From a virus (lineage: Duplodnaviria; Caudoviricetes), in the IMG/VR virus record IMGVR_UViG_3300043409_002192, positions 1-63,330 of that record: a DNA stretch of 63,330 bases; one strand, 5' to 3'. This document shows, one piece after another, positions 325 through 63,330 of this stretch. A program made the position numbers and the translations under genes. Every line of letters starts with the position of its first letter. Position 1 is the first letter of the stretch. Under the pieces are notes generated by a model. That model was not told where the DNA came from, did no database searches, and saw nothing but the letters and a program-made list of their open reading frames with translations.

Positions 325-569
325 CACCTGACGCGCCAACGGTTGACGCTCTCATTGCGGACTTGGAAGCGCGCGGCCTCGGCTGGTCGCTCGACAACAC
401 AGGACGGCTCATCGAGGCGCGCGTGTGGGACTGGCCGTATGTGATCGGACGCTACCGCCCGAATGCCACCGAGCCGCTCGCCAAGATGCTCGCCGAAGCG
501 ATGTATCAGGTGGACTGGACCCGCTACCCGGTGAAGTCGCCGAACGCTCTGCCAACCTCTGGGGCATGA
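321..569 (+). CDS. hypothetical cassette protein (MTPDAPTVDALIADLEARG...)
   Basis: ATGA overlap with the upstream stop; ends ...KSPNA.. inside the attC at 539. Confidence 0.7.
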   Translation: MTPDAPTVDALIADLEARGLGWSLDNTGRLIEARVWDWPYVIGRYRPNATEPLAKMLAEAMYQVDWTRYPVKSPNALPTSGA

Positions 570-668
570 CCAGTGAATCTCAAAATACCAAAAGACATGA
601 TCGAAGATGCAAAACTCACGAAGTCCGACACGCCAGCCCCAGAGGTTGGCAGCAGCGCTTTGTTCGGC
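539..668 (-). other. attC-like recombination site
   Basis: Plus strand GCCGAAC...GCCAACCTCTGGGGC / GCCCCAGAGGTTGGC...GTTCGGC imperfect palindrome; spacer appears shortened on one arm. Confidence 0.75.
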
Positions 669-974
669 TGGCTTGGCGAGGAGATAGCTCGCAATCGACG
701 GAGGGCTGAGCAAGCTACTGCTCTCGCTGACCGTCTAGCCTCCCTAATGGCCGGAGCCTGCGCTGCCGGCCAATGGCGCGGAGTCAAGACGGTGAAACTC
801 GTGACCGATAGGGCCTATGTGATCCGCAGGCCGGGAACAACATCGCTCGAGCTAGCAACATGGCACGACGGATGGCGCACAATCATGGGGCATATTGCCA
901 ACGGGGGGGAACTCGAAGTGTGGGAGCCGAACGCTGAGGTGAGGCACGGCGCAAAGGACGCTGACCTCGACTAG
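597..974 (+). CDS. hypothetical cassette protein
   Basis: ATG inside the attC loop (GTG 573 is an alternative); N-terminal SSALFG comes from the attC arm; ends WEPNA.. in the next attC. Confidence 0.7.
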   Translation: MIEDAKLTKSDTPAPEVGSSALFGWLGEEIARNRRRAEQATALADRLASLMAGACAAGQWRGVKTVKLVTDRAYVIRRPGTTSLELATWHDGWRTIMGHIANGGELEVWEPNAEVRHGAKDADLD

Positions 975-1011
975 AAACTTTCCCGCCGTTGCCTCGACCG
1001 TCTTGTTAGCC
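926..1011 (-). other. attC site (canonical architecture)
   Basis: Minus strand reads GGCTAAC-AAGAC-GGTcGAGG-CaACGGCG...CGCCGTG-CCTCACC-TCAGC-GTTCGGC: R'', L'' with extrahelical C, second extrahelical A, L', R'. Confidence 0.9.
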
Positions 1012-1032: not shown

Positions 1033-1063
1033 AGCCGGACATGGGGGTTCTTCATGTCCGGCT
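1033..1063. terminator. hairpin in an ORF-less cassette, possible terminator
   Basis: AGCCGGACATG-loop-CATGTCCGGCT 11-bp stem; no clear U-tract. Confidence 0.45.
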
Positions 1064-1124
1064 AACGCTGCGGATCAGGCGACAGATGCGCTTCGAGCCG
1101 TTGCCTGCATCCCGCTGGTTCTCT
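1060..1124 (-). other. attC site
   Basis: GGCTAAC GCTGC GGATCAGGC...GCCTGCATCC CGCTG GTTCTCT; bulged base on the right arm of the plus strand. Confidence 0.85.
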
Positions 1125-1511: not shown

Positions 1512-1698
1512 ATACAAAAAGCTCCGCGAAAGCCTCGGCACACAAGCCGAGGTTGCTCGCATTCTGGGAGTCAACCGAGTGACAATCGCCAAACGCGAAA
1601 GCGGAGCGATGAAGCTCACTTGGGAAGCGTCTCTTGCAATGCGTGCCATTGCACCGCTCCGCAGTCCTAAACGCTTCCGGGAGGCACGCCGGAAATGA
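1498..1698 (+). CDS. XRE/Cro-type HTH protein
   Basis: MTPPEYKKLRESLGTQAEVARILGVNRVTIAKRESG helix-turn-helix pattern. Confidence 0.85.
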   Translation: MTPPEYKKLRESLGTQAEVARILGVNRVTIAKRESGAMKLTWEASLAMRAIAPLRSPKRFREARRK

Positions 1699-1751
1699 AG
1701 CCCGAATCAATCACAGACGTTATCGGCGTTGCCTCGCACGCCTTGTTCTCC
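1666..1751 (-). other. attC site
   Basis: CCTAAAC..GAGGCACGCCG / CGGCGTTGCCTC..GCCTT GTTCTCC. Confidence 0.75.
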
Positions 1752-1766: not shown

Positions 1767-2072
1767 ATGAAAGTCCGCGACAAAAACATCAAACAGACTG
1801 TAAGTGTGGCCCATTCGCGTTGCCTCAAATGCGCGTGCTATTGGCCACGCCCCGATCCGGGGGTATTCACGCAAGGGCAGGGATACCGCCGACGCGAGGG
1901 AAAACAGGAATGGCTTTGCGGAACACGCGAAATCAGAGGATGCCCAACACGGGCGCGATGCTGCAACAGAGCCTACGCCGCCTATGAAACCAAGTGCCGG
2001 GAATGTGGTCATTCTTTGGAGAACGCACAAGCTCTGGCACAGCCGGGGCGCAACCAGACTCCGACACCATGA
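1767..2072 (+). CDS. Cys-rich (Zn-binding) hypothetical cassette protein
   Basis: Several CxxC motifs; ends LENA.. in the next attC. Confidence 0.7.
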   Translation: MKVRDKNIKQTVSVAHSRCLKCACYWPRPDPGVFTQGQGYRRREGKQEWLCGTREIRGCPTRARCCNRAYAAYETKCRECGHSLENAQALAQPGRNQTPTP

Positions 2073-2117
2073 AAAACTCCACCGCCCCGGCCGTTGTCCA
2101 GCAGCGCCTTGTTCGGC
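2018..2117 (-). other. attC site
   Basis: GGAGAAC..GCTCTGG..GCCGGGGCG / CGCCCCGGC..CCAGCAGC GCCTT GTTCGGC. Confidence 0.85.
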
Positions 2118-2914
2118 CTTCCGGTCGTGTGCTTTGCCGCTTCTCCTGTGGTGCCGCTTCCGCTGTGGCTACAAAGCTGGCAATCGAGAAATACGGCACG
2201 GTAGAAATCAACTACTCGGACACTGGCAGCGAGCATCCAGACAATGCCCGCTTCATCGCAGACTGTGAGCGGTGGTTCGGTCAGAAAGTCACGATCACGA
2301 AAAGCGAAAAATACCGCGACATCTGGGAAGTGTTCGAGAAGAAGCGGTTTCTTGTCTCGCACCAAGGAGCGCCATGCACGGCGGAAATGAAACGCCGCCC
2401 AGGTGATTCGGTCTGGAGTATCGGGGACACTGAAATCTTCGGATACACGGCAGACGAACGGCATCGGGTAGAGAAATGGTCACGGGACAACTTCGAGAGA
2501 ATCATTGAATGCCCGCTCATCGAAAAGAACCTCACGAAGGATGACTGCTTCGGAATCTTGGACCGTGTAGGCATCGAGCTTCCCGCCATGTATCGGTTGG
2601 GGTTCCGCAACAACAACTGCATCGGGTGCGTGAAAGCCCGCGATAATCTCGACTACTGGAAAAGAGTGCGAAAGCACTTCCCCGAAATCTTCGAGCGCAT
2701 GGCAAAGCTGGAGAGGGACATCGGAACGACGATCAACCGAATCACAAAAGCGGGGGAACGCTCCCCGATCTTCCTCGACGAAATCGAAGCAGGCGACCCG
2801 AAAGGCGCGGACCCTAATATCCAGTGCGGACTCTTCTGCATGGCCGAAGCTGACGCGCTACTTGATGGGCCGAACGATAAAACTGAGCCACAGGCCCCAC
2901 AATCAAATCTATGA
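2069..2914 (+). CDS. PAPS-reductase-like (adenine nucleotide alpha-hydrolase) family protein
   Basis: FSCGAASAVA PP-loop-like motif, HPDNARF, PCTAEMK, YRLGFRNNNCIGCVK, C-terminal CGLFC; ATG in the attC loop. Confidence 0.8.
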   Translation: MKNSTAPAVVQQRLVRPSGRVLCRFSCGAASAVATKLAIEKYGTVEINYSDTGSEHPDNARFIADCERWFGQKVTITKSEKYRDIWEVFEKKRFLVSHQGAPCTAEMKRRPGDSVWSIGDTEIFGYTADERHRVEKWSRDNFERIIECPLIEKNLTKDDCFGILDRVGIELPAMYRLGFRNNNCIGCVKARDNLDYWKRVRKHFPEIFERMAKLERDIGTTINRITKAGERSPIFLDEIEAGDPKGADPNIQCGLFCMAEADALLDGPNDKTEPQAPQSNL

Positions 2915-2964
2915 CAACACAAGAGACATCCGAGGGGCATATTGGCTCCAGTGCCTTGTTCGGC
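2869..2964 (-). other. attC site
   Basis: GCCGAAC GATAAA ACTGAGCC..GCCCC / GGGGC..GGCTCCAGT GCCTT GTTCGGC. Confidence 0.88.
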
Positions 2965-3264
2965 GTCCTTGAGTGGATCAGCCTCCAAGGAGGCACGTTC
3001 AACGCCTTCAATCCCGGCCTCATCACTGGCAAAGTGAGAGGTCTGACTTACCGCTACTTCATCGCGGAAGGGTGGATTGGGTTGAAGACACCGGACTGCA
3101 CGGCAGGGAAGGCGACAGAGTGCCTCAATATTGAGGATTTTCGATATGCGCTAGAAATCCATGCGCCGAACGCCGCTGCGCAGGACATGCCACACTTCCT
3201 GCCGAACGATTTAGCGCACACACAGAAGGGGCGGGAGCGCGGCCCCGATAAAACTCAAGCCTAA
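2911..3264 (+). CDS. hypothetical cassette protein
   Basis: ATGA overlap in the attC loop; SSALFG leader. Confidence 0.7.
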   Translation: MTTQETSEGHIGSSALFGVLEWISLQGGTFNAFNPGLITGKVRGLTYRYFIAEGWIGLKTPDCTAGKATECLNIEDFRYALEIHAPNAAAQDMPHFLPNDLAHTQKGRERGPDKTQA

Positions 3265-3329
3265 CTCTATGGAAACGACTACCTTTAACACAGCGGCCCC
3301 TTCTGTTGATGTGCCGCGCCTTGTTCGCC
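3201..3329 (-). other. attC site
   Basis: GCCGAAC GATTTA GCGCACA..ACAGAAGGGGC / GCCCCTTCTGT..TGTGCCGC GCCTT GTTCGCC. Confidence 0.85.
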
Positions 3330-3586
3330 CATTACGGACTGACGAGGAGATCGTCATGCAAACAGATAAGCTCGCCTTCACGCTGGCGCTACTGTCAGGC
3401 TACGCGTTCGATGCAGATTACAAGTTCCACCTGCACACGCGGATCGCTAGCTGCCCAATGCCTCGGCAGGCGCAGTTCTGGGAGATGGCTCGGCAAGCTC
3501 AATTGCTCCTGACCGACACTGACCCAGATGACGCCGTGGATAATCTCGATTGGGCGAACAGTGTGATACCCAAACCAGAAAAATGA
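3269..3586 (+). CDS. hypothetical cassette protein
   Basis: ATG in the attC loop; RLVRP leader; ends WANSV.. Confidence 0.7.
   Translation: METTTFNTAAPSVDVPRLVRPLRTDEEIVMQTDKLAFTLALLSGYAFDADYKFHLHTRIASCPMPRQAQFWEMARQAQLLLTDTDPDDAVDNLDWANSVIPKPEK
3553..3575 (-). other. putative attI-like array end site A
   Basis: GGCGAAC-AGTGTGATACCCAAAC, no hairpin, similar to 28853-28876. Confidence 0.55.
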
Positions 3587-3711: not shown

Positions 3712-6700
3712 TCATTTTTCCACCTCCCCGAGTTGATCCACCGGCCGGTTCTTGAGTTCTCCCCATGCCCGGCGGCGGCCTTCCTCGTAGGCGTCCTTGA
3801 TGCGCTTCACATCGTCCTCGGTGGGCTTCAGCGGAATCCCGGCCAAGGCATTCTTTGCCAGTGTGGCACTGCGGACGCTCAGGTATTTGTAGGCTTGGGC
3901 GTTCAGTTTCACGCGGGCCGGTTTTCCGCCGATGGTGAGGTTCTGTGTGCGCTCGGGGGAACTTGGAGCCCATGCCGGTTTTCCGGGGTTCGCCTGATTC
4001 CATTTTCGCAGGACGATATCGGAAAGCGTGGGTTTTCCGCTTTCGATGGTGGCTGGAATAACCAAGCGGCTGATTGCATTCCCTGATTTCTGCTTGTCCT
4101 CCCCGGTGGCGGTATTCACGCGGGCTTCTGCCCCGGAGCCCAAGGGGGCCAGCTGATACCACCAGTCTGCCGTGGTGCTATCGCGCACGAGCGGATCCAT
4201 GTTCCGGACCGGTTGGCGGATGAGGTTGGGCACGAGGGCATTCAGGATGAACCGCTCGCCCTTGTCTGCCAGTTTGCCGGGCTGCTTCACGCTGTCGAAC
4301 ACCGCGGCCAGGCCGCTCAGGAACGTCTTATTGAGGGCGGCATCCTTCAGGCTACCGAACACCAGTCCGGCCTTCTCGGCGCTGTCTCCGCCGCCCTTCC
4401 AAATGCGGAGGGCGTCAATGATGCTGCCAAGGACGGTGGCGATCGGTTCAATGCGACCGTAGGGGATTTTGGTGTCACCGATGCGGATGATGTAGCTTCC
4501 GCCAGCCACGCGCTCCTGTAGGTCTCTTTCCGCAAAGTCTGCGGGCGGGCTGCCGGTGATGAGGAAGGTTTTTTCTTCGTCATCGTCATCGCCTTCTGCC
4601 GCGCCTTTCAATAAGGCGAGGGCGGCCATGGCGATGGTTTGCTCGGCGAGCCATTGCATCATCTGCGGGCTCGTGGCGGGGGTGAGTCCCACGCGGCCGC
4701 CGGAGATTTTCACTAGTCCGGATTTCCCGAGTTGGTAAAGCAGATGCGCCATCCCCAGCGGAGACTTCCGGATGCCGGCGCGGAAGATATTGTAAGGAGT
4801 GCGGATGAAGGGCAGGATGAAACCCAGGAGGCGGCTGGAGTTTTTCCATTGCTGGAGGGGTTTCAGGGATTCCGGCAGTTCCGTCTGGAAGGTCAGTTCA
4901 CGCGCCTTCTCGACCGCCAGCTGCCATGCCTGGCTGCCGGGAGTGTAGAGGAGGGCATTCATGCGCTTCTGCATGGGCTCGCCACTGAGGCCTTCCGCCT
5001 TGGCGATGCGGTAGGCCTGCGCTGCGGCTTCCAGTTGGGCGACGGCGCCTTTGAAGAAGCCATCGACGGCCATGAGGGCGCGTCCGGGAATGCGCACCGT
5101 AGATCCGACGCTGGCACCCTTCCATCCTTTGCCTTTGGCTAGATCAATCACAGCGCCGGGCAGGCTTTTTGCCCCCGGTGTTCCGATCCGCCCCAGACTA
5201 TCCGGAATGGCGACCCGGCGTCCTTCGCCCTTCGGCCCGGTTTCGAAGAGTTCCGGCTCATTGTTCATGACATCGTAGTCGAACCAATCGGTTTCCGTTC
5301 GCCAGGCTTTGGACATGAGGCGGTATCCTCTGGCGACCCCGGGGAAGATGGCTTTGGCCATATAACGGAACTCTCCGAACTGGGCACCTTTCTTGTCGCG
5401 GATGGCGAGGTTCCAGACGGCTTCCATCCCACGCTGCACGGTCAATTCCCATGCGCTGGCAGCGGCGTTCCCGCTGATGTTGACCACCTGAGTCTGGGGG
5501 CCGGAGAGGAGGTTGTTGATCCAGTATTCCTGAACCATGTCCAGCGGATGGCCTTCGACCGTCTGGGCGAGGCGGGCGAGACGCACCATGTCTTCCACAT
5601 TGGCCATGTCGGCACCGTTGAGCACAGAGATTTCCATTTCCACCGGTTCATTGAGGCCAAGTCCAAGTTCCTGCTGGGGGATGTTGCGTTCCCATGTCTT
5701 CCCGGGTCCTGGCGGGATGCTGTTGTCAGCAGGTGGCGTGGTGCCGGGAATGCGGGGCTGAGTGCCATCTTGGCGGGGGAGGCGGGGCAGAGCGGCGTAT
5801 TCGTCCAAAGACATGCCAGTGCCGGCGGCGGGTGGCTGGAACAGGCGTTTGCGCTTCACCGTCTTTCGTTTGCCCTGCTGCTTGTCGGGGAAGTATCCCA
5901 TCTGACGGATGAGTTTCTGAATCTCCGCTTCCGCATCGGCATCCGACATGGCAGCCATGGCGGCGAAATCCACGTCCACGAGGTCGGCCGGCTGGCTGCC
6001 AAGTGGGGAGGACTGCAATCCGGCGGCGGCTTTGGCCCGGACCCGCATGGCGCGGAGTTGTTCCGCCAGCTTTGTCATCATCTTCTCCTTCACGGCGCGG
6101 ACTTCCTGAGGCGTCAGGCCTACCTCTTTCCCGATGTCGATGAAGGTCTTCTCTCCGCCTTGGAGGAGGATGGCAGCCTTCGCTTCCTTGGCTCCCAGGG
6201 TGGCAGCGGTCTGGCCGATGATGGCAGCCTTCCGGAGGGAAAGCTGAATCCCGCCGGAGAACAAATCATCAAGGGTAACGCCCATCTTGGCGAACTCCAT
6301 TTCGATCCGGCGGATGCGCTTGGCGTCCTCATCAAGGATCTTCTGGCGTTCGGCGGCGGTTTTTGCTTCCTCCATCTTCTTCCGCACCTTAGCCGGCGGC
6401 GTGAATATTTGCTTGGCGAGGAACTCGCGGTGCCGCGCCTCTGGTGTCTTAAAGGGATCCCGGCGGGAGGCGAGGCCGCGGGCTTGTTCCGTGCCGGCCT
6501 GGCGGTAGGCATAGACGAGAGCCTGCAACCGGCGCTGGCGGGGGCCGGTGAGAGGATTCCGGGATTCGCGTTCCACGATCATCTGGGCGGCCCGGGTAAG
6601 CTCCGGGGTCAACTGTCCGCCTTGGAGCCCATTGGCCATCAGACGTTGCACGGTGCCTTCGTAGTCATCAGCCAGCATGGCGCGGGCGGCGGCGTCCCAT

Positions 6701-9700
6701 TGGTCGAAGGTTTCCTCGGTGGCGGTGGCGGCGCGGTAGGCATCCACGCCCATGATGACGGGATCGCCGAAAGCGGTGAAACCCCCACCCAAGCCAAGAT
6801 CAGGATTGCCCACCGTGCGGTTGCCGGAGGTTTCTGCTTCGGCTTGGCCGGTGAGGTCATTGAGGGCGGTGAGGTCCACGCCAGCAGCGCGGAGGGCGTC
6901 TTCGAAGGATTGGGATTGGAGAATGGAATTGCTGTCAGGATTGAAGCGTTGGGACAGCGGGATGACGTTGCCCTGCTCGTCGCGGGTGATCGGGTCGGCG
7001 GATTTGATTTGGGATGCGGATGCGTAGATCTGCCCGTTAAATCGGTCGAACCCGTTGCCCCAGTTGCTTAGTTCTTCTGCCCGAATGAGGGCTTCAAACT
7101 CGATGGGGACAACCCCGGCCATCAAGGCTACTTTTGCTGTTTTAGCTTTGTCCGTGTCGTCGCCGGCGGTTCTGTCAAAATTAGCGTAACTCAGAGCATT
7201 TGTGTCTCCAGCCCCGTCGCCTTGAATCCATTCGTCAAATTCTTGTGCTTGGTCTTCAGATAGCTCAAATGTTGGAATTTCGATCTCGGCGCGGCCGGCG
7301 CGACGGAGTATTTCGTTTGCCCTTCTCGCTGCAAAAATGCGATGTGACCCCGTTAACGCTCTGTCCCCCAATCGTAAGATCGGGCGGCCATTCCATTTTC
7401 CAGATTTGGCAAACTCCCGAGCCATGGCAGCAACGTGCTTTTCCCGACCGGGGTATATCTCGTTAACAGGTTCAAGATACTCAGGATCAATGGAATCGTT
7501 TGGTTGCAATAACTCCAGTCCCGCCGCCTGCGCCGCCGCGTCCACCATGCGCTGCGCCGTCTCCATGTCACCGGCTTCCACGGCGGCCATGTATTCGGCG
7601 TCATGCAGGCGGTCGGTTGTCGTGATGGAAAAGGAGTTGACGGCAGCGCCGGATTGTGTTGGATTCGCTTCGTCAGCAATGACACGACCGGCCGCCCCGT
7701 CAGGGGCCAAGGCAACTGTTTTTGCCTTGGTTCCACCGTCAGTCTTCGCAAGAGGGCTGACGGTTTTGCTTGTCCACGGCATCCCTTCCCAACCGTTTCC
7801 GTAGGCTTTTTCCGCAGCAATGGCGAACTTGGAAATCAGCCATTCTGACGCCTTTTTGACCTCTGCCAAGGTCGTAGGCTTTGATAGTCTGAAATCATCG
7901 TTATTAAAACCAAACTGCTTTTCGCGGAAGACAGACGGATCATGATTGGCAATCCGGTATTTTTTCACCTCGCCACCTGCAAATGCATCATCGTCTGCCC
8001 AGTCAGGTATGCCTACATCATTAAAATCAGCCGCCGGGCGGATCATAAAATATTGGCTTCCAGTAGTCGCGCCTTGGTATTGTATTTCAACGCCAATAGC
8101 TTTGGCCAGTTCTGATGCTTCCTGCGTGCTTTCATGAATGTAATCCAGCGGAAAGTCAGGATTGAAATCAACATCCGTTGGCTCCATGGATTTTAATCTA
8201 TCCAACGCTGATGCGTAATGATCATTGGCAGGCAAGGAATCCTCAAAGGATTGAGACTGTAAAGGCTGAGCTTCATACCATCGCTGGAACGCATCATAGG
8301 CACTGGCAGCCGTTTTTCCTTCGCCTCCAGATATTCCTCCTTCACTTAGAACAGTCCAACTTTGATTGCGCTTGTAAAGATTTGGAAGAAAAGTCGAATT
8401 TTCACCAGGAGCAATTAATTCCCAACCTTTTGGCAACTGGCGTTTTACTTCTTCTGGCGACATTTGATTTTGGACTTCTGAAAACACTGGCAATCCAGTT
8501 TCGTTTTGCAGATTTAAATATTCCACTGGCTCCACGCCTTCTTCCTTTTCAATCAGCACAAAGAACTCGCCATCAATGACCCGATGCCCGGCTACCCCGT
8601 ATTCCTGCCCGTCCAGATAAACAGAGGTTCCCACTGGAGCCCCGTTTCGAAGCCATGAAGGCGCGGGAACAGGATTGGCTTCCAAATCCTGCACAAGATC
8701 CGCCAGTTGCTTCTGCTTTTTCTCAAGGTCTGTCTGCCGGGCGAATGGTGTTTCCGCCACTTTTTGAAGGCTGAGGATACTGGATTCCCGCTCTTTCACC
8801 AATTGGCCAAGAGCAGTGATTTCCGCAGTGATACCGCGAAGGGTGTAGTCCAATGAACCCACGGCGACATTCCGCACCAGATGGTCTGTGGCCCCGCGGA
8901 GTTCGATCTTCCGGACTGGTTCCGTAGAGGCCAGAGAACGCTGGCGGAAAGCACGGATTTCAAAGCCCCGGTATTCTCCGATAGTGGTCCATTGAATCGC
9001 GGTGTTGAACGTCTCCTGAATGGGCAGCTGCTCCACGGCATCCGCCAATGTGTTTTCAGCGGTGTCCTTGTCGGTGATGGTCTTTCCATCCAGCACGATG
9101 GAAAACTTCTGTTCCCGTGCTTTGGCGAAAGTGTCAGCGTCAATGCTCAGTTCAGGAATGCGGCCGGAGTAATACCGGATGTCACGTTCTAGGGAAGGAA
9201 TACGGTTCTTGGCATTGGCGATGGCCTGCCAGTGGCTCCGCTGTTTATCAAGGAGCTTGTTCACGTCCTTGTTCAGCTTTTCGCGCATAAGGATGCGGGG
9301 ATCACCGGCAGCGGCAGAGAATGTTTCCTCAAAGCCTCCGCCCCCTTCCTCTTCCATGTCCACGCCATCGCCTTCAATCACGCGAAGGGAGCCGTCCGCT
9401 TTCATGAATTTCTTGATGAAGCGGTCCTTTGTCAGGAGAATCTGCCACCGCCGGCCATCGTGACTGCCTTCGGTGATGTAGCGGTATTCCAGCACGGTAT
9501 TCCACCGGTTCCCCTGACGCCATCCACGGCCGTTCCGTTGCTCAAGGTCGCCAGGCATCCATGGGGCATCCAAATGGTGCATGGCCCGCATTTCCATCTG
9601 GGCATTCACCCCGGTCCCCATGGTTTCCGTGCTGCCAATGGCGACACGGATCAAACCTTCCTGCATTTTCTCGGCGGCAATCTTCCGCTCATCAGCGGAA

Positions 9701-12700
9701 AGGTCAGAGAAAATAACAATCTCATCTTCGGAAAGGCCAGCTTCGATCAGCTTGTTTTTGAGGTCCTTGGCCACATTGAAGACAGGCACTTTCACCTTGC
9801 CCTTCTCCTTGTTGCCGCGCTCCACAAAGTCAGAGAAACCCGTCTGCATGAACACCATTTGCGTGCTCTTTGGGTGTTCTCCGTAGTGCCGCATGATGTT
9901 TTTGGCGGCCCGGTAAACCTTGCTATCAGGCGTATCCAGTGCGTTCGGTTCGATCAGACGGTAATCCATGGAGGACTTCACGCCTTCGCCTTCAATCATG
10001 ATCGGCATTTCGGGGGCACCGCTGCGCATGGCATCCCGTTTCTGCTTGCCATTCATGTTTTTCCAACGGCGGTAACGGGCGGATAACTGCTCCTTGTGCG
10101 CTTTCTGCACGGCACTCATGGGGCTGATTTCATTCACCACTTGTTTGAATGGGCGTCCGATGGCGTCTTCGGTGCGTTCGTCACGGTCACTGCGGGGCTC
10201 AAACTCCGGCATGTCATCAGCAAACACGATGTCGAGGTATTGCCCAATCATCCGGCGGAGTTCCGGCAGGTTCACGAAGGAGGAAAGGCGTTCCACCGGT
10301 TCCCACTCGCTGGCACTGTTGAGTTCTACTTCTGTGGTGCTGGAGGCGAAGGAATTGAACCAATCATCCCAGCCGGCAATGCCGTCCCGCTTCATCACGT
10401 CATCCATGATGTAGCGCATCATGTTAAACACCTCATTCAGGGTGTTGGTGATAGGAGTCCCGGTAAACAGGTGAATCCCATTGCCTCCGTTGTTCCGCTT
10501 CACGTAATCAGCCAGTAATCCCAGCATGATCCCGCGCTTGCTGCCGTTTTTGTTCAGGCCCTTGAGCTTCTGCTTGGTGCTGAGAGGCAGCTTTTTGAAG
10601 ATGTGCGCTTCATCGACAATCACCATGTCTACGCCCAAATCTTCGAAGAACACGGAATCCGGGTTCTCGGCCATCTGCCGGGCCTTTTCGATCATGGCTT
10701 TGACCTTCTCGCGCTCCTTCACCAATTCCTTGGCAGTGGGGCTGCGGAGTTTCTTCAGAGCGTCAGGATCATCCATATCCTCAATGGACAGGCTGGCGTT
10801 GTCATCTTCGGCAGCGGCAATGGCGGCCTGTTCCAGTTGTTCGATTTCCTCACGAACCAAGGCTTCCACGGATTCCGGACGGAGAGACAAACGGGAAATC
10901 AGACTGTGGGGAATCACTACGGCGTCCCACTCATCCAGTGCGATCTGGGCGAGAGTGGCGGCACGGGTGGCCGGGTTAAAGTTGTCCACGAACAACACCT
11001 TCCCGCCGGGATAGGCAGACTGGATTTCAGCGGCCACCTGTCGGGCATTGGCATTGTGGGCAAGGATGATTGGTTTACGCGCCCGGCCCAACCGGCGGCT
11101 TTCCATGACAAGGCCAGCCATGACAAGAGTTTTGCCAGTGCCGACCTCATGAGCATTCAGCGAGCGACCGGTGACCACACCACGCCAGACGGCATTCTGT
11201 TGGTGTTGCCGGAGATTGAACGGACCATTCCCCTTGGAAACAGCCAAGCCTTCAAATGCAAGGTGGCTGCCATCGTAATTTGGCAGAGCGATGGCATTGT
11301 AAACCTCGTTATAGTTTTTCTCCAAGCGTCCGGCGCGTTCCGGATCCTGCCAGAGCCATTTCGTGAACTCTTCCCGGATGGCTTCCACCTTGGCGTTTGC
11401 TTCCTTGGTCGCCTTTTCATTCACGGGCTGGCTACCGTCTTCCTGCCGGGGGTATTTGATCACCACGGTCGCGTTGTTCATGGCAGCGGATACCAACTTG
11501 CGGAAGGAGTAATCGGCCACGCCCCATGTGGTCGTGGCTTCCGGCTTGCGGGTCAGGCCATCGTCCATTTGCACTTTCCAGCCCTGCGGCATCTTGTCGA
11601 TCTTCACCCCTGAATCTGTATTCAGGAGAGACTGGACAAACTCCACATAATCCTTCGACGGTACCCAAGTAGCTCCGATCTTCGCTTCAATCTGGAAGTA
11701 AGGGATATCGGCAGGAATCACCGCAGCAAGGGCGTCAATGTTCCGGTCCATGTCCATCACGCCCTGTTCCTTGGCATCAAGGGCTTGACGGTATTTTTCC
11801 CGGACATTGCCGGCGAGGTAGATGTCCGTGGGTTCGTAGGTGCCCACCGGGGTCTTGTAAATCTGATTGGTGGCAAACAGTTCCTTCTCCACCTCATCCA
11901 CCGTGGTCTTGGCCTTTACTGCAATGGAGGGAAGATCCAGAACTAAGGAGGCATTGCGGGCGAGGACGTAGGCATCCGCGATGGAAGGATTCTTAATGCT
12001 CCGAACGCCCCGCAGCACGTCCTTGGTGAAAATGTCGGCTTTTATCACGGTGTCGCCATTCACCTTTTCCAAGGCCATCAGCATAGGCATAAACGGATCG
12101 CCTACCCGAGCCATGATAGAAATCCCTTCACTCCTCCGGATGGATTTGTGCGCTTTGGTGAACGCGTCGTATTGATCATTCAACTGCTTCCGCAGGCCGG
12201 TGGAATCGCGATTGTTGCGCTGGGCATCCAGCAAAGCCCCGACTGTCCGACGGATTTCCACCAGGTCTTTGATTTGAGCTTCCCGCTTGGCCGTTTTGGC
12301 GGCGTCCTTCACGGCATACTTCACCACATTGGAAAGCGGCTTCAGATGGTCACCATCGACCACGTAAAGGCCATCATCTGTTCTTACCACGCTGCCCTGT
12401 CGGTCATTGGAATTGTTGGTGACGTAGCTATCAGCTTGGCCAGCGGTCAGTGATGGAACGTAAGCGGCATCTTTCGGCAGCATTTCCGCCACCTTGGCCA
12501 AGCGCTCTGGCAGGTCGTCAGTGCGGTTCACAATCATCCCTGGCCGGTAGCTCGTGGTGCCGTGGCCGTGATTGAGCACTCCCAGAATGTTTTCCGGGTG
12601 GTCGGCGAAGTATTCATTGATTTCCACATCCGTCCCACTTGGGGTCCGGACGCTCTTGAGATTGAGGAATCCGCTTTCACGCGGGTCGCTTGGTTTCTCC

Positions 12701-14160
12701 AGCTTTTGGAAAACAAGAATGTCCGTCACAACACTGGTGCCGGCGTATTCCTTGAAGGCACCTGTGGGCAAACGGAAGGCGGCCACCAGTTTCCCACGCT
12801 TGGCCATTTCAATGCGGGAGCGGATGCCCTTCTTGTCCATGGTGCCATTGGAGGTAATGCCCACCACGAGGCCGCCGGGGCGGGTTTGATCCAGTGCCTT
12901 GATGAAAAAGTAATCGTGAAGCACTGCGCCGATGGCGTCATACCGCTTGTCCACGGGAATTCCATTGGAGAACGGCCAGTTCCCAATAACCATATCGTAG
13001 AAGTTATCACTGGTCTTGCTTTGCTCGTAGGGTTTAATCTGGATGTTCGCCTGCGGGAAGAGGATTTTAGCCATGCCTCCGCTGACTTCATCCATTTCAA
13101 TGCCGGTCAGGGTGGAATTGGCGGCAATGTCTGGCGGCATGAGACTGAAGAAGTTTCCAATACCCATGGACGGCTCCAGCACACGGCCCCCCGTGAAGCC
13201 AAGAGCCTTCACGATGTCATACACAGCCTTCACCGTGGGCGGGTCGGTGTAGTGGGCATTGATGATGCTGGTTTGCATCCCCTCCCATTCCTTCTGTCCC
13301 AAATGATCCCGCAGCCATTCGTCTTCTTTTTCCCATCCGGCTTTTGGCTTGGACTTGGACCACGATCCTTGGAAAAGCTCTTGGCCGAATGATCCCCACC
13401 CCATGTAACCGGCCAGAGTATCCAGTTCTTCCTGAGTAGGTTCCCGATTGGCGGTGCGGAGGTCCTGGTAAACCTCAATCGCTTTCTGATTCCGGGCAAA
13501 CTTGGACTTGGGTCCACCGCCAACAATGGCTTCCGGGTTGGTCAGCTGATAATTGGCACGACTTGGCGCTTTCTCTGCCGGGGCGCGAACATCAGGCGCT
13601 ACGCTAGGCTTGCGCTTTCTTCTGCGTCCTCCGGTGTCATCAGGTCGCCTAATACTTCGATCGACGCCTGAATCATTGGTTCCGGGTGATTCTGATCCCC
13701 CAGTTCCTGCCATCGATTCATCATTTTGGCTTCCATCACCCGGGCGTAATGCAGGGTTATCCCCGCTTCGTTCAGTTGCATCCACCGCCGGGGGCAATGC
13801 TCCTTCCAGAACTCCACCATCTCCTTCATCTTGGGTGAGACTCCCGGCCACTCCTGCGCTATCTTGAGTGATTCCGTCTTGATTTCCTGGGCGTAAGTCG
13901 GGTTCATTTGCGGTAATGTCGGCTAAGTTGGTAGGTTCGTCAATCTCTGGCTTGGGAGCCAAGGCAGCCCTGAGCGTTTTCACGTTCTTCATGGTCATCA
14001 CCATGACCTCTTTGACGGCTTGCAGTTCCGCTTCCTCCTGTGAGCGCAGATAGCCTGGACTGTCCATGATGGTCTGCACCCGTGCCTTAAGGCCGGTCCG
14101 GACGACTTTGGGGAGGCTGATGGTCTGAAGACAGCCGCGAAGGTTGGGGGAAGAGAGCAT
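3712..14160 (-). CDS. giant DarB-like / large polyvalent protein (N6-adenine MTase + SNF2 helicase + ParB-like + C-terminal polyvalent region)
   Basis: VLEPSMGIGNF and IGNWPF (MTase motifs I/IV), AHEVGTGKT, VDEAH, QRNGRGWRQGN (SF2), GSHRIFAA (ParB-like); 3482 aa. Confidence 0.9.
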   Translation of the reverse strand: MLSSPNLRGCLQTISLPKVVRTGLKARVQTIMDSPGYLRSQEEAELQAVKEVMVMTMKNVKTLRAALAPKPEIDEPTNLADITANEPDLRPGNQDGITQDSAGVAGSLTQDEGDGGVLEGALPPAVDATERSGDNPALRPGDGSQNDESMAGTGGSESPGTNDSGVDRSIRRPDDTGGRRRKRKPSVAPDVRAPAEKAPSRANYQLTNPEAIVGGGPKSKFARNQKAIEVYQDLRTANREPTQEELDTLAGYMGWGSFGQELFQGSWSKSKPKAGWEKEDEWLRDHLGQKEWEGMQTSIINAHYTDPPTVKAVYDIVKALGFTGGRVLEPSMGIGNFFSLMPPDIAANSTLTGIEMDEVSGGMAKILFPQANIQIKPYEQSKTSDNFYDMVIGNWPFSNGIPVDKRYDAIGAVLHDYFFIKALDQTRPGGLVVGITSNGTMDKKGIRSRIEMAKRGKLVAAFRLPTGAFKEYAGTSVVTDILVFQKLEKPSDPRESGFLNLKSVRTPSGTDVEINEYFADHPENILGVLNHGHGTTSYRPGMIVNRTDDLPERLAKVAEMLPKDAAYVPSLTAGQADSYVTNNSNDRQGSVVRTDDGLYVVDGDHLKPLSNVVKYAVKDAAKTAKREAQIKDLVEIRRTVGALLDAQRNNRDSTGLRKQLNDQYDAFTKAHKSIRRSEGISIMARVGDPFMPMLMALEKVNGDTVIKADIFTKDVLRGVRSIKNPSIADAYVLARNASLVLDLPSIAVKAKTTVDEVEKELFATNQIYKTPVGTYEPTDIYLAGNVREKYRQALDAKEQGVMDMDRNIDALAAVIPADIPYFQIEAKIGATWVPSKDYVEFVQSLLNTDSGVKIDKMPQGWKVQMDDGLTRKPEATTTWGVADYSFRKLVSAAMNNATVVIKYPRQEDGSQPVNEKATKEANAKVEAIREEFTKWLWQDPERAGRLEKNYNEVYNAIALPNYDGSHLAFEGLAVSKGNGPFNLRQHQQNAVWRGVVTGRSLNAHEVGTGKTLVMAGLVMESRRLGRARKPIILAHNANARQVAAEIQSAYPGGKVLFVDNFNPATRAATLAQIALDEWDAVVIPHSLISRLSLRPESVEALVREEIEQLEQAAIAAAEDDNASLSIEDMDDPDALKKLRSPTAKELVKEREKVKAMIEKARQMAENPDSVFFEDLGVDMVIVDEAHIFKKLPLSTKQKLKGLNKNGSKRGIMLGLLADYVKRNNGGNGIHLFTGTPITNTLNEVFNMMRYIMDDVMKRDGIAGWDDWFNSFASSTTEVELNSASEWEPVERLSSFVNLPELRRMIGQYLDIVFADDMPEFEPRSDRDERTEDAIGRPFKQVVNEISPMSAVQKAHKEQLSARYRRWKNMNGKQKRDAMRSGAPEMPIMIEGEGVKSSMDYRLIEPNALDTPDSKVYRAAKNIMRHYGEHPKSTQMVFMQTGFSDFVERGNKEKGKVKVPVFNVAKDLKNKLIEAGLSEDEIVIFSDLSADERKIAAEKMQEGLIRVAIGSTETMGTGVNAQMEMRAMHHLDAPWMPGDLEQRNGRGWRQGNRWNTVLEYRYITEGSHDGRRWQILLTKDRFIKKFMKADGSLRVIEGDGVDMEEEGGGGFEETFSAAAGDPRILMREKLNKDVNKLLDKQRSHWQAIANAKNRIPSLERDIRYYSGRIPELSIDADTFAKAREQKFSIVLDGKTITDKDTAENTLADAVEQLPIQETFNTAIQWTTIGEYRGFEIRAFRQRSLASTEPVRKIELRGATDHLVRNVAVGSLDYTLRGITAEITALGQLVKERESSILSLQKVAETPFARQTDLEKKQKQLADLVQDLEANPVPAPSWLRNGAPVGTSVYLDGQEYGVAGHRVIDGEFFVLIEKEEGVEPVEYLNLQNETGLPVFSEVQNQMSPEEVKRQLPKGWELIAPGENSTFLPNLYKRNQSWTVLSEGGISGGEGKTAASAYDAFQRWYEAQPLQSQSFEDSLPANDHYASALDRLKSMEPTDVDFNPDFPLDYIHESTQEASELAKAIGVEIQYQGATTGSQYFMIRPAADFNDVGIPDWADDDAFAGGEVKKYRIANHDPSVFREKQFGFNNDDFRLSKPTTLAEVKKASEWLISKFAIAAEKAYGNGWEGMPWTSKTVSPLAKTDGGTKAKTVALAPDGAAGRVIADEANPTQSGAAVNSFSITTTDRLHDAEYMAAVEAGDMETAQRMVDAAAQAAGLELLQPNDSIDPEYLEPVNEIYPGREKHVAAMAREFAKSGKWNGRPILRLGDRALTGSHRIFAARRANEILRRAGRAEIEIPTFELSEDQAQEFDEWIQGDGAGDTNALSYANFDRTAGDDTDKAKTAKVALMAGVVPIEFEALIRAEELSNWGNGFDRFNGQIYASASQIKSADPITRDEQGNVIPLSQRFNPDSNSILQSQSFEDALRAAGVDLTALNDLTGQAEAETSGNRTVGNPDLGLGGGFTAFGDPVIMGVDAYRAATATEETFDQWDAAARAMLADDYEGTVQRLMANGLQGGQLTPELTRAAQMIVERESRNPLTGPRQRRLQALVYAYRQAGTEQARGLASRRDPFKTPEARHREFLAKQIFTPPAKVRKKMEEAKTAAERQKILDEDAKRIRRIEMEFAKMGVTLDDLFSGGIQLSLRKAAIIGQTAATLGAKEAKAAILLQGGEKTFIDIGKEVGLTPQEVRAVKEKMMTKLAEQLRAMRVRAKAAAGLQSSPLGSQPADLVDVDFAAMAAMSDADAEAEIQKLIRQMGYFPDKQQGKRKTVKRKRLFQPPAAGTGMSLDEYAALPRLPRQDGTQPRIPGTTPPADNSIPPGPGKTWERNIPQQELGLGLNEPVEMEISVLNGADMANVEDMVRLARLAQTVEGHPLDMVQEYWINNLLSGPQTQVVNISGNAAASAWELTVQRGMEAVWNLAIRDKKGAQFGEFRYMAKAIFPGVARGYRLMSKAWRTETDWFDYDVMNNEPELFETGPKGEGRRVAIPDSLGRIGTPGAKSLPGAVIDLAKGKGWKGASVGSTVRIPGRALMAVDGFFKGAVAQLEAAAQAYRIAKAEGLSGEPMQKRMNALLYTPGSQAWQLAVEKARELTFQTELPESLKPLQQWKNSSRLLGFILPFIRTPYNIFRAGIRKSPLGMAHLLYQLGKSGLVKISGGRVGLTPATSPQMMQWLAEQTIAMAALALLKGAAEGDDDDEEKTFLITGSPPADFAERDLQERVAGGSYIIRIGDTKIPYGRIEPIATVLGSIIDALRIWKGGGDSAEKAGLVFGSLKDAALNKTFLSGLAAVFDSVKQPGKLADKGERFILNALVPNLIRQPVRNMDPLVRDSTTADWWYQLAPLGSGAEARVNTATGEDKQKSGNAISRLVIPATIESGKPTLSDIVLRKWNQANPGKPAWAPSSPERTQNLTIGGKPARVKLNAQAYKYLSVRSATLAKNALAGIPLKPTEDDVKRIKDAYEEGRRRAWGELKNRPVDQLGEVEK
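13599..13907 (-). CDS. possible overprinted small protein nested in another frame of the giant gene
   Basis: 102-aa ATG ORF with globular, helical composition lying over a low-complexity linker. Confidence 0.45.
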   Translation of the reverse strand: MNPTYAQEIKTESLKIAQEWPGVSPKMKEMVEFWKEHCPRRWMQLNEAGITLHYARVMEAKMMNRWQELGDQNHPEPMIQASIEVLGDLMTPEDAEESASLA

Positions 14161-17568: not shown

Positions 17569-17814
17569 TTATTGGGCTTCGATTTCGGCAGTCTTCCACC
17601 GGCCTTGGGAGTCGCGGGAGGTGATGGAAATGCGGTATTTGCGGGGGCGTTCCTGTGCTGGGGACATGTGAATGACCGGAGCAGGCACATTGATAATGGG
17701 GGCAGGCTGTTCCCGCAAGGGGGACACGGCCATAGCCCGATACGCATCAGCCAAAGCAATGGTGGCTTCAGCGGAATCCGCAATGGCTTCGGCTAATTCG
17801 GATTCTGGCGTCAT
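17569..17814 (-). CDS. hypothetical protein
   Basis: ATGA overlap with the giant gene stop; PAPIINVPAPVI..RDSQGR. Confidence 0.65.
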   Translation of the reverse strand: MTPESELAEAIADSAEATIALADAYRAMAVSPLREQPAPIINVPAPVIHMSPAQERPRKYRISITSRDSQGRWKTAEIEAQ

Positions 17815-26119: not shown

Positions 26120-26241
26120 GTCTTTTTTGGGGCGGTGAAAATAAATGATAAAAGATTGAAATAATGCTTGCAGGAAATCAAACCGCGATTTAAGGTCTTC
26201 TCAGTTGCCGCACGAAGCGCAATCGAACCGACCAACAAAAA

Positions 26242-27614: not shown

Positions 27615-27738
27615 GGCGAACGCCGCTGCGCAGGAACCCCCGCTGACACTGAACCCAACCAACAAATAAAATGAACGAACTACCTAGCACTAAACCGGAG
27701 GCGGATGGCGGGGTTACCCTGCCTCAGCCTTGTTCATC
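27615..27738 (-). other. attC site
   Basis: GGCGAAC..GCAGGAACCCCCGC / GCGGGGTTACCCTGC..GCCTT GTTCATC. Confidence 0.75.
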
Positions 27739-27964
27739 GCCGCTTGACCCTGCCACATGCCTTGCCCTCAAGCCCGTCCACGACATCGGCGATCAGGCGG
27801 TGAAGGAGCGCGACGAATGGAATCGCTGGTCTGTGGGAATCGCTGGGATGCTCAATGTGTCGTGTTCTGACTTCGCCTCAGACGTGGTGGCAGATCAATA
27901 CGCGGAACTCCGCGCCCGAATCACTCAAGCACTGAACGACTCAAGCTCAGCGACCCGGCCATGA
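27671..27964 (+). CDS. hypothetical cassette protein
   Basis: ATG in the attC loop; PCSS leader; ends ALNDS.. Confidence 0.65.
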   Translation: MNELPSTKPEADGGVTLPQPCSSPLDPATCLALKPVHDIGDQAVKERDEWNRWSVGIAGMLNVSCSDFASDVVADQYAELRARITQALNDSSSATRP

Positions 27965-28023
27965 AAGACTCACCCTTGCAACCAACGGACGATGGCCGGG
28001 TTCGCTGCAGCGCATGGTTAGGC
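27931..28023 (-). other. attC site
   Basis: Minus strand GCCTAAC CATGC GCTGCAGCGAACCCGGCC...GGCCGGGTCGCTGAGC TTGAGTC GTTCAGT. Confidence 0.9.
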
Positions 28024-28236
28024 GGCGGGCTATCGGCACTCCAGCGAGTGCGCAATCGGCTCCGGGACGAAGAATGTGAACTGCGCAAGCAAGCGGATAA
28101 ATGGCACCACCTCGGTGCGCCCGAAACTGCAACCGCAAAGCGCCTCGCAGCAGATGTTCTGGATGCTGCGGTCAGCGTCATCGTTAAGCTTGAGGTCGAA
28201 ATCATCGCTGAGCGAGATGAGCCGCCTAACGCTTGA
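27961..28236 (+). CDS. hypothetical cassette protein
   Basis: ATGA overlap in the attC loop; ends EPPNA. Confidence 0.7.
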   Translation: MKDSPLQPTDDGRVRCSAWLGGGLSALQRVRNRLRDEECELRKQADKWHHLGAPETATAKRLAADVLDAAVSVIVKLEVEIIAERDEPPNA

Positions 28237-28285
28237 GATCAGCCACGGGGCCTTAGCCCCGTTGGACTGTATCTCATTGTTCTGC
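28224..28285 (-). other. attC site (short, 62 bp)
   Basis: GCCTAAC GCTTGA GATCAGCC ACGGGGC-loop-CCCCGTT GGACTGTATC TCATT GTTCTGC. Confidence 0.85.
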
Positions 28286-28314
28286 TCCGTTGGTGAGAAT
28301 CTTCAAAATACCGC

Positions 28315-28342
28315 TTGTGTCATAACCCGCTTATGATAATAT
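28315..28342 (+). promoter_or_regulatory. promoter-like element with palindromic operator
   Basis: TTGTGT..TAATAT with TCATAA-CCCGC-TTATGA; upstream CGTTGGT..AATCTTCAAA shared with 1127-1148. Confidence 0.55.
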
Positions 28343-28725: not shown

Positions 28726-28910
28726 AAAAGGAACTCAAGAAATACCTCGCGGAGATCGGCAGCAAAGGCGGCAAGGCAAGCCGCCGCAAGATCACCCCAG
28801 CACAGCAGGCAGCGATGCAGGAAGCTCGAAAGGCCGCAAGACTCCGCAAGGAGCAGAACAGTGTATTATCACAAACTCATGAGAATTTACCGCAACCAGA
28901 AAGCGAGTAA
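28722..28910 (+). CDS. small basic KGG-motif protein
   Basis: MKKELKKYLAEIGSKGGKAS; ATGA overlap. Confidence 0.65.
   Translation: MKKELKKYLAEIGSKGGKASRRKITPAQQAAMQEARKAARLRKEQNSVLSQTHENLPQPESE
28853..28876 (-). other. putative attI-like array end site B
   Basis: GCAGAAC-AGTGTATTATCACAAAC, similar to 3553-3575. Confidence 0.55.
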
Positions 28911-62528: not shown

Positions 62529-62583
62529 AAAGTAACCCATCGACTAGGACGACCGGGGCGTCGGCTCCAGTGCCATGTTCGCT
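62500..62583 (-). other. degenerate attC site (right arm intact, left arm eroded; start approximate)
   Basis: GGCTCCAGTGCCAT GTTCGCT matches the arm at 2944-2964. Confidence 0.55.
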
Positions 62584-62908
62584 GACTTGGTGTGATGGCT
62601 GCCTAAATCGCCGTCCATGCCGCGCCCTAAGATCGGGAGTCGTTTACAACTGCATCGAACTGGAAATCCACCTCTGCCGCTGGTGCCGAGGGCAACGAAC
62701 TCGCAAGTCAGCGAACGACAAAGGCCAGACACGGCGGGAGGAATTAGCTGCGCCGCCCCCCGCGCTCCCCTCCGCCCCACTCCCTGACGATCAAATTACG
62801 CAAGCCATGCTGGAAGCCTGCTACGACTGTGGGATGAGCGCCCACGCGCTGCCGCTTCTGCCGAACGACCAAGCGCTGGCACCGGATGGGCCGAAAACAA
62901 CTCTATGA
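62525..62908 (+). CDS. Cys-rich cassette protein fused to a partial cassette
   Basis: PCS leader, CDGC..CRWC; reads through AGCGAAC at 62710. Confidence 0.6.
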   Translation: MKSNPSTRTTGASAPVPCSLTWCDGCLNRRPCRALRSGVVYNCIELEIHLCRWCRGQRTRKSANDKGQTRREELAAPPPALPSAPLPDDQITQAMLEACYDCGMSAHALPLLPNDQALAPDGPKTTL

Positions 62909-62962
62909 AAACAGAACCAACTACCCCGGCCCAGCCGGTTGCCCAGCCGCGCCTTGTTCGCC
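62860..62962 (-). other. attC site
   Basis: GCCGAAC GACCAA GCGCTGG..ACCGGATGGGCCG / CGGCCCAGCCGGT..CCAGCCGC GCCTT GTTCGCC. Confidence 0.88.
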
Positions 62963-63330
62963 CGTTGCCCTGCCCTCATTGCGGTGGGCCCGCCGAACTC
63001 CGGCGATACCAACACGACCGCGAAAGGGTGTATTACGCCTGCGCGGCCGCGGCGTGCCACTACACATATACCGACCATAGCGAAGCACTGGCAGCGTGGA
63101 ATCATCGGGCGAACAGAGGAACCGAACCCACCCCACCCAGAAACCCGTCGCGAGTCGAAGAACAACTACGCATCGCACTTGACGGACATCCCGAAAGCGA
63201 ACTCTGGGGAGAAAACGGACTGATCGCCGCAACGATGCGAGCTGCCAACTACGCCAGTCGCCAGCAAGAAGCGGAATGGAAGCTGGCCGACTACCTGCGC
63301 GGCGGAGGAATGCTCGCAGCGCCTGCTGAC
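62905..63330 (+). CDS. Lar (restriction alleviation)-like domain fused to a downstream hypothetical; continues to 324
   Basis: LPCPHCGG..C..C..EALAAWNHRA; translated by hand, absent from the ORF track. Confidence 0.7.
   Translation, partial: MKTEPTTPAQPVAQPRLVRPLPCPHCGGPAELRRYQHDRERVYYACAAAACHYTYTDHSEALAAWNHRANRGTEPTPPRNPSRVEEQLRIALDGHPESELWGENGLIAATMRAANYASRQQEAEWKLADYLRGGGMLAAPAD
63178..63330. repeat. terminal direct repeat (circular assembly overlap), copy 2
   Basis: Identical to 1-153 except one base; an ORF reads through the junction. Confidence 0.97.

Follow-up and report, generated by a model that had tools for sequence, protein, structure and literature searches.

How the small early genes of a tailed freshwater phage are joined to one another, and whether the hairpins at their borders are sites of recombination, are the questions raised by the virus record IMGVR_UViG_3300043409_002192 (Duplodnaviria; Caudoviricetes), whose whole stretch of 63,330 bases was analysed and is called the window here. 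The region of interest (2018-2964) lies within a + strand operon of small genes that crosses the record ends (62.3 kb through 3.6 kb), and it extends from the hairpin named S4 to the hairpin named S5 as one cassette with a PAPS-reductase-like open reading frame (ORF). A sequence-only reading of this DNA had proposed that such hairpins are attC sites like those of integron cassettes, that the crossover triplet AAC is read in a fixed frame, and that genes start and stop inside the sites. On the basis of what was observed and is described below, namely how the sites are built and to which family they belong, the strand they lie on, the statistics of the reading frame, the borders of the cassettes, the swapped tails and the hybrid nature of the R boxes, we consider it probable that the phage carries attC sites of the Verrucomicrobia type, which embed bottom-strand genes with the AAC phase fixed and which would be exchanged through the integron integrase (IntI) of the host.

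The window contains 11 complete imperfect hairpins on the + strand at early-gene junctions (Table 1). Complete sites were defined by folding and by folds constrained to pair AAC with GTT, that is, by motif plus structure and not by energy alone; the energy-only scans for AAC...GTT hairpins returned about 100 matches per strand, many of them by chance in GC-rich DNA, and were unable to define the family. Each site opens with a 5' box whose last three bases are AAC, in most cases GCCGAAC, and closes with a 3' box which is mostly CTTGTTCGGC; between them are a short spacer without pairing, a stem that has about 15-25 pairs, and a loop of 3-77 nt. The stem is interrupted by single extra bases, which are found on the 3' arm only.

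Integron integrases cleave the folded bottom strand of attC between A and C of the conserved AAC, the bottom-strand arms carry RYYYAAC on one side and GTTRRRY on the other, and the extrahelical bases opposite the AAC arm lie at 16, sometimes 20, and 23 or 24, the last being a conserved T (PMC5027507, Nivina et al, 2016). When positions were counted from the outer end of the GTT box, a counting origin deduced from that paper, extra bases were found on the 3' arm at 16, 20/21 and 23/24 in S4, S6, S10, S11 and the sites of the contig L002, with mostly T at 23/24, and S10 has them exactly at 16, 20 and 24. The AAC and GTT triplets were invariant in 25 of 25 aligned sites; boxes of the GCCTAAC / GTTAGGC type fit RYYYAAC...GTTRRRY fully, and the commonest window box, GCCGAAC, has a G at the fourth position. 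R1, a covariance model for which only 8 window sites were used, was strongly strand-specific, scoring S11 with 91.4 bits on the + strand and 7.8 bits on the - strand. Among 25 matches, 7 of 7 inner-helix pairs had changes on both sides, and 92.3% of cells were paired as against 76.4% after shuffling and 26-52% in slid controls, pairing figures that are favoured by the fitting of the alignment to the model. R1 is tuned to the long-loop sites of the window and missed most L002 sites unless its filters were switched off, and a second model made from compact sites (R2) missed the long-loop sites, so neither is a general attC model. A search of five viral records with R1 returned no match at E <= 1 in spite of the sites of L002, which reflects the first-look filter of that search and not a lack of sites. 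The extra-base geometry, the arrays of the same family in integrase-bearing Verrucomicrobia and the hybrid R boxes together support the assignment of these hairpins to the attC family, as the sequence-only reading had claimed.

The same reading had held that most cassette genes lack their own stop and read the crossover AAC as an in-frame Asn. The frame was counted at sites with an upstream ORF of at least 50 codons. AAC was read as a codon at 9 of the 10 window sites, the sole exception being the CCTAAAC at 1666-1672, and in the arrays of other contigs at 8/8 sites in L002, 4/4 in L016, 3/4 in L018 (where the miss is ambiguous, a TGA inside the box stopping the longest frame), 3/3 in L026, 2/2 in L020 and 1/1 in L021, giving 30/32 in total. 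One and the same PAPS gene precedes six of the 32 sites, and with orthologues collapsed the count became 25/27. In the long ORFs of these loci, 42.1% of all AAC triplets are in phase 0, a base rate against which 25/27 has P = 5e-8; against the expectation of one third, which had been named beforehand as a check of the claim, P = 1.9e-10. The phases of the GTT box were 8/7/5 among 20 sites with an ATG in the loop. An unfiltered structure scan gave AAC phases of 37/11/9 among 57 junction matches, diluted by chance hairpins and by mirror matches on the non-coding strand.

The upstream ORFs read through the AAC box and then stop in the loop, in four cases by an ATGA overlap with the next start (2069, 2911, 27961, 62905), all of which were present as claimed. 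Eight of the nine start codons that had been placed inside attC loops lie there (597, 1695, 2069, 2911, 3269, 27671, 27961 and 62905), and the ninth, 62525, stands before a remnant that has only a 3' arm. The start at 1695 is located in the S3 loop but opens a 21-codon ORF only, the next long ORF beginning at 1767. The 3' arm was read in three phases, as ALFG at S1 and S5, RLVR at S4, S6 and S11, and PCS at S8, again as described earlier. The WANS, SAND, RANR and EQNS positions, which had been counted with the others as crossovers, do have AAC boxes but no full hairpin. In the S4, S5 and S11 loops, no Shine-Dalgarno-like motif was seen before the starts when the sequence was read. Where no long ORF feeds a site (L041, L026), a leader mini-ORF has its ATG directly before AAC and ends by ATGA on the real start; the lead-in of L015 is 13 codons. 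In L002, an attC-like site with a weak fold (4040-4096) lies wholly inside one ORF (..IIND.. through ..MVGP..) and looks like two cassettes fused in frame through the site.

In an integron attC site the R box is hybrid: beyond the triplet, its bases come from the neighbouring cassette and match that cassette's other end. The outer boxes of the sites (R boxes) were compared for complementarity. Boxes flanking one gene had a mean of 8.7 contiguous complementary bases (n = 23, range 5-13), as against 4.3 for the two boxes of one hairpin (n = 27) and 4.1 for other combinations (n = 226), with P = 2.7e-9 and 1.6e-15, respectively. Complementarity at the stem base is thus not kept within each hairpin, where it is 4.3 versus 4.1 for random combinations. 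This switch of partner at the triplet is what recombination inside the core predicts, whereas evolution of the hairpins in place predicts the opposite. For 9 of the 12 window GTT boxes, the flanking AAC box was the best or tied-best partner among 778 AAC triplets. The four AAC boxes without a hairpin (WANS, SAND, RANR and EQNS) are each complementary over 9-13 nt to the GTT box preceding their gene: the S12 GTT box can pair at 13/13 positions with the SAND box (62704-62716), its top partner among the 778 triplets, and contiguous complementarity is 10 bases between the S10 GTT box and the EQNS box (the top partner among the same 778), 9 between S11 and RANR (the top partner) and 9 between S6 and WANS. 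For the S5 GTT box, the AAC at 3169 in the orphan arm was the tied-top partner, over 8 nt.

The borders of the cassettes were mapped with relatives of the PAPS-reductase gene, for which 6704 of the 8000 candidates scored reached E <= 1e-30. The sole similarity between the window and L015 runs over 2022-2875, with the AAC triplets of S4 and S5 as its two ends, and the homology of L016 and L018 with the window ends right at 2875/2876. Between L041 and L016, the identity of 93% is confined to 5993-6774 and stops at AAC, and upstream the two have the hairpin base in common and not the tip. The L002 record has the PAPS gene alone in common with the window, yet carries the same kind of array. The linkers between PAPS core and Asn vary in length and sequence. 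In many of 120 homologues from metagenomes, the conserved core is followed by a short linker and Asn, after which unrelated tails begin; P0002, P0003 and P0004 have a common leader and three unrelated tails after Asn, P0006 has the N-terminus of the window protein with a different tail, and the homologue leaders carry the GTT box in three readings (RLVR, AWLG and ALFG types). The earlier suggestion of swappable C-terminal tails was supported by homologues with the same leader and unrelated tails directly after Asn. Hairpin modules at least 90% identical have different flanks on both sides in other metagenomes.

The cassettes of L015, L018 and L041 are bordered by a hairpin to their left but by AAC alone to their right, which is the layout that insertion at a secondary site with the GWT consensus would be expected to leave. 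By sequence reading, L015 minus its cassette would leave one 34-codon ORF coupled to both neighbours; no empty site for the L015 cassette was found, nor any relative of the upstream gene of L015. Another phage, L001, was set aside as evidence on attC exchange, its PAPS gene being 93% identical in amino acids but its junction repeat of another kind. Two copies of this repeat of about 36 nt (9968-10010 and 10762-10810) flank the PAPS-reductase gene in L001 and hold the upstream ORF end and the overlapping next start, and it may be a second kind of portable gene junction.

The relation of the sites to bacterial integrons was examined in a Verrucomicrobiaceae metagenome-assembled genome (MAG), G006, with a relative of the PAPS-reductase gene on contig L041. 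The integron integrase of G006 scored 378 bits with TIGR02249 against a cut-off of 265, which none of 14 control genomes reached. R1 sites are regularly spaced at three contig ends of this MAG (3 on L065, 3 on L068 and 2 on L064), and the arms of S2b are identical to G006 array sites over 13/13 bases of the 5' arm and 22/22 of the 3' arm. Among 41 relatives of G006, R1 matches at E <= 0.001 were found in 26 and an integrase above the cut-off in 19, the matches being among the candidates scored with R1, which were 85-150 of about 1000 first-look candidates per genome. In one relative without an integron integrase above the cut-off, nine R1 matches are scattered on one chromosome (G040:C1), and these could be prophage arrays or dispersed cassettes.

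In five of the genomes (G020, G021, G023, G035 and G044), R1 matches lie about 1-26 kb from intI, the nearest at 0.8-2.9 kb, and on the same strand as intI. Integrases and cassettes are usually transcribed divergently, and the matches on the intI strand therefore indicate that the orientation of the model is that of the bottom strand. The one host array read in detail, L065, has its ORFs between the sites and on the strand opposite to the model orientation, with stops of their own. The phage ORFs are on the strand of the model orientation, that is, bottom-like, and overlap the sites, starting in one loop and stopping in the next site. The canonical cassette layout, in which a top-strand ORF ends before or in the first box of its own attC, was found in L065 and not in the phage. 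Likewise, attC arrays beside an integron integrase were found for the site family and not for the phage itself. The phage arrays would thus be attC clusters without an integrase in which the genes are inverted and embedded, and the likely host group is Verrucomicrobia. The placing of the crossover at the coding-strand AAC by the sequence-only reading agrees with the model on the intI strand in five genomes, the opposite direction of the host ORFs and the homology blocks that end at AAC.

These observations suggest a mechanism that would account for the grammar of the arrays. A six-frame search of the complete phage record gave no match to the tyrosine recombinase family (PF00589), and the intI, attI and Pc layout of a complete integron was not found in it; the arrays would therefore depend on host IntI. 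On the coding strand, a cassette would begin with the C of an AAC and finish with the AA of the AAC that follows. After the remainder of the 5' arm would come the loop, in which the preceding gene stops and the cassette's own gene starts, then the 3' arm and lastly the gene body. The cassette gene would have no stop of its own and would end in the next cassette. Because AA and C would always be read as one codon, any upstream gene would be terminated at the intended stop by any downstream cassette, and the frequent ATGA overlap of stop and start would allow termination-reinitiation. The exchanges by IntI, their continuing today and the translational coupling are thus the parts of the proposal that go beyond the observed features. 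More tentatively, and with rather less than even confidence, Verrucomicrobia phages may keep a cassette pool of their own, in which the coding grammar is written into the recombination site, with the crossover in an Asn codon and a universal phase, and the host integrase is borrowed during infection. If so, the order in which cassettes are joined would be free, an in-frame AAC anywhere in another ORF could receive a cassette (L015 suggests this), a cassette closed into a circle would form a single uninterrupted reading frame, and the phages would have a natural site-specific shuffling of genes, protein tails and leaders.

The same hairpins could be read in other ways. They might act at the RNA level only, in mRNA processing, stability or translational control, having evolved in place with any shuffling incidental. 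The mRNA has the sequence of the folding strand, so all the structural features are also present in the RNA; the starts in loops and the stops overlapping starts fit this idea, and the lack of a Shine-Dalgarno-like motif in the S4, S5 and S11 loops means that structure or coupling may matter for initiation. However, the outer R-box bases pair poorly in situ (4.3) and well across the adjacent gene (8.7), the same family occurs in arrays adjoining integron integrase genes with the ORFs on the other strand, and a fixed phase on one arm alone is not predicted, so we give this explanation hardly any credence. It is also conceivable that the hairpins are attC sites whose AAC phase is no selected standard but a by-product of one ancestral junction or of homologous recombination within similar hairpin modules. 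Such modules, at least 90% identical and with different flanks on both sides, do occur in other metagenomes, the phage encodes an exonuclease-family protein (phrog_1218), and six of the 32 counted sites stand behind the same gene. Against this, most stems in one genome differ, with covariation, leaving only boxes of 7-14 nt usable for homologous exchange, the phase is kept behind about 25 different upstream genes, the PAPS core-to-Asn linkers differ in length and sequence, and the GTT side, equally inherited, is not phased. We therefore regard a by-product as unlikely. The sites might finally be relics in decay, left by cassettes that were captured from integrons of the host or entered by a single insertion, and without any role in recombination or translation today. 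The partial or decayed S3 and S12, the orphan arm at 3163-3190, the four AAC-only boxes, the GTG box and disrupted inner stem of L015 and the absence of an integrase from the phage would all agree with decay. This is nevertheless very improbable, as 11 sites keep the full structure with compensatory changes, the host cassette genes are oriented oppositely, so that simple capture would not give the phage architecture, and the same architecture is seen in the otherwise unrelated contigs L002, L016, L018 and L026.

The reading of the hairpins as attC sites recombined by host IntI has its own difficulties, and the following observations weigh against it. The first extra base is C or T instead of the usual G, and the central spacer is unpaired but short, with 2-5 nt per arm versus the usual 5-6. 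Decayed or fused sites occur (S3, S12, the four AAC-only boxes and L015, with GTG for GTT and a disrupted inner stem), and the phage record lacks a PF00589 match. The alignment behind the covariation figures was fitted to the model, the survey of the G006 relatives covered the scored candidates only, the ORFs were read from sequence, and the host link consists of a binned MAG and site similarity. The flanks of the modules raise a further difficulty. Contig mapping showed that four other metagenome runs hold contigs in which nothing but the S2, S4 or S6 hairpin matches the window; these contigs have unlike sequence before 926, 2018 and 3203/3204, and also behind 1748 and 3330, the latter being the difficult breaks. 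In addition, the PAPS genes of L016 and L018 (83% nucleotide identity) stand behind hairpins whose inner stems are unlike that of the window. Crossovers on the bottom strand cannot separate a hairpin from the gene that follows it and would not explain such GTT-side breaks, for which top-strand events, homologous exchange in the GTT box or the process that gives genes their attC sites are possibilities.

Table 1. Sites, partial sites and the PAPS-reductase-like cassette ORF in the window (AAC and GTT, positions of the two triplets).
Feature	Position	Strand	AAC	GTT	Score (bits)	Remarks
S1	539..668	+	543	662		Perfect inner stem of 17 bp; upstream stop 567; next long ORF from 597 in loop
S2	926..1011	+	930	1005	24.2	Complete; upstream stop 972 in loop
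S2b	1060..1124	+	1064	1118	56.5 (R2)	Compact, intergenic, host-array type; operon end
S3	1666..1751	+	1670	1745	11.8 only	Atypical CCTAAAC; frame exception
S4	2018..2117	+	2022	2111	77.4	Upstream stop 2070 and ATG 2069 in loop (ATGA)
PAPS-reductase-like cassette ORF	2069-2914	+				Starts in S4 loop, ends in S5 loop; PF01507
S5	2869..2964	+	2873 (in frame)	2958	83.6	Stop 2912 and ATG 2911 in loop (ATGA)
Orphan AAC arm (APNAAAQD)	3163..3190	+				18 nt from its GAAC identical to S8 5' arm
S6	3201..3329	+	3205	3323	74.6	Stop 3262 and ATG 3269 in loop
WANS AAC box	3551..3559	+				No full hairpin; array end; degenerate GTC box after
S8	27615..27738	+	27619	27732	57.8	Stop 27667 and ATG 27671 in loop
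S9	27931..28023	+	27935	28017	55	GTTAGGC box; stop 27962 and ATG 27961 in loop (ATGA)
S10	28224..28285	+	28228	28279	45.7	Compact, 4-nt loop; upstream stop 28234
EQNS AAC box	28848..28859	+				No full hairpin; closes promoter-bearing segment after S10
S12	62548..62589	+		62577		Remnant, 3' arm only; start codon 62525 upstream; fold without AAC arm or R-box pairing
SAND AAC box	62704..62716	+				No hairpin; in frame within ORF 62525-62908; looks like fused junction
S11	62860..62962	+	62864	62956	91.4 (R1)	Upstream stop 62906; ATGA overlap with start 62905
RANR AAC box	63103..63114	+				No hairpin; within Lar-like ORF starting 62905

Several features of the window surround these sites. The orphan arm (3163-3190) looks as if it had been left behind by a cassette now lost. 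A perfect 9-bp hairpin at 1031-1057, between S2 and S2b, lies in a 134-nt ORF-less segment bounded by two AAC boxes, which may be a gene-less cassette or a terminator. The ORF starting at 62905 matches Lar_restr_allev over residues 21-69. A second small-gene group is found at 27.1-28.9 kb, and promoter-like AT-rich stretches lie ahead of the small-gene groups (1140-1200, 26140-26200, 28290-28340 and 62260-62310); inside the first of them is a palindrome at about 1160-1190, and a contig of run X2 departs after 1156 into a similar palindromic stretch. In L002, short direct repeats at 1255-1330 encode a repetitive Pro/His/Arg-rich stretch before an HNH-like ORF.

The record is rated complete and classed as linear, and its first 152 bases (1-152) are repeated as the last 152 (63179-63330) with 1 mismatch, which may mean a terminal repeat, or else overlapping assembly ends of a genome that is circular or permuted. 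The large ORFs matched PHROG families of DarB-like antirestriction/methyltransferase/helicase, portal, terminase, primase-helicase and exonuclease proteins. An ORF of 3482 aa on the - strand (3712-14160) matches the DarB-like antirestriction, methyltransferase, helicase and internal-virion-protein families, and one of 2687 aa on the same strand (17811-25874) matches families of unknown function only. The idea of an N4-like phage with hairpin promoters was dropped, as the 3482-aa ORF matches the DarB-like antirestriction, methyltransferase and helicase families. Within a primase-helicase-like ORF (43073-45292) is an inverted repeat (43413-43516) that is longer than any other in the window, with 30-nt arms that are 93% complementary and 44 nt apart. 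A DNA-level search of the phage collection yielded no relative of the window phage, nor did a search of viral contigs with the DarB C-terminus, and a DNA pattern derived from the sites recovered coding look-alikes only, apart from the record of L002 itself.

These arrays unite three things in a single stretch of DNA, namely the site, the last part of one gene and the beginning of the next, and the codon phase at the crossover is fixed. The early accessory genes concerned include one with a Lar-like restriction-alleviation domain, beside the DarB-like antirestriction gene, and if an integrase acts on the sites, phages would use the integron machinery of the host to reshuffle them. Natural attC sites could then sit in coding sequence, as has so far been achieved by design (PMC7439510), and the rules of cassette expression would be testable where coupling is obligatory. 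The arrays also bear on how genes acquire attC sites, the same hairpin being joined to different genes at the GTT box.

Clusters of attC sites lacking integron integrases (CALINs) have been described in phage genomes by Qi et al (2023; PMC9892861), who reported 17 CALINs, each with at least 2 predicted sites, found with standard detectors, and recombination by IntI1 at 5 of the 6 phage sites tested. The phage of the window resembles those in carrying at least two attC sites while lacking an integron integrase; the section of that report on CALINs makes no mention of sites that lie within genes, of a bottom-strand gene orientation or of a codon phase that is fixed. Integron sites in phages have so far been reported as ordinary ones between genes. 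The sedentary chromosomal arrays of Verrucomicrobia (G006 and its relatives) belong to the same site family by covariance model, but the ORFs of the host array L065 are on the top strand, between sites and with their own stops, whereas those of the phage are on the bottom-like strand and run through the sites. Short conserved repeats at gene borders through which phage modules are shuffled are also known, such as the PeSL of T4 and the boundary sequences of lambdoid phages; they are associated with mosaicism and act by homology. In contrast, the stems of the phage sites described here differ in sequence, and the partner switches exactly at the AAC/GTT triplet.

A reading frame across the recombination point is known from ORF-11 / ORF-18 of attI1, a short ORF for which the inserted cassette supplies the in-phase stop, and ORF-11 drives by coupling the translation of a cassette without its own initiation region (PMC8876359). 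As described there, it is one leader peptide of class 1 integrons, whereas every array gene of the phage spans the crossover; the leader mini-ORFs of L041 and L026 would be a special case for first cassettes. Cassettes are also reported to insert at secondary attG sites, where the GWT (AWC) consensus alone suffices (10.1101/2022.09.11.507474), and such an event would leave the layout of L015, L018 and L041, for which the search for an empty site to compare gave none. The openly searchable literature yielded no account of phage ORFs that contain attC sites in a set codon phase. Nivina et al (2020; PMC7439510) placed synthetic attC sites in protein-coding sequence, designed in silico so that the sites serve as peptide linkers; there, as in the phage, attC structure and protein coding share the same DNA. 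Set beside the accessible accounts of phage attC clusters, of the crossover-spanning ORF-11 and of engineered coding attC sites, what appears to be new in this phage are natural arrays whose genes are embedded in bottom-strand attC sites with a fixed codon phase, and these arrays would be the natural counterpart of the engineered ones.

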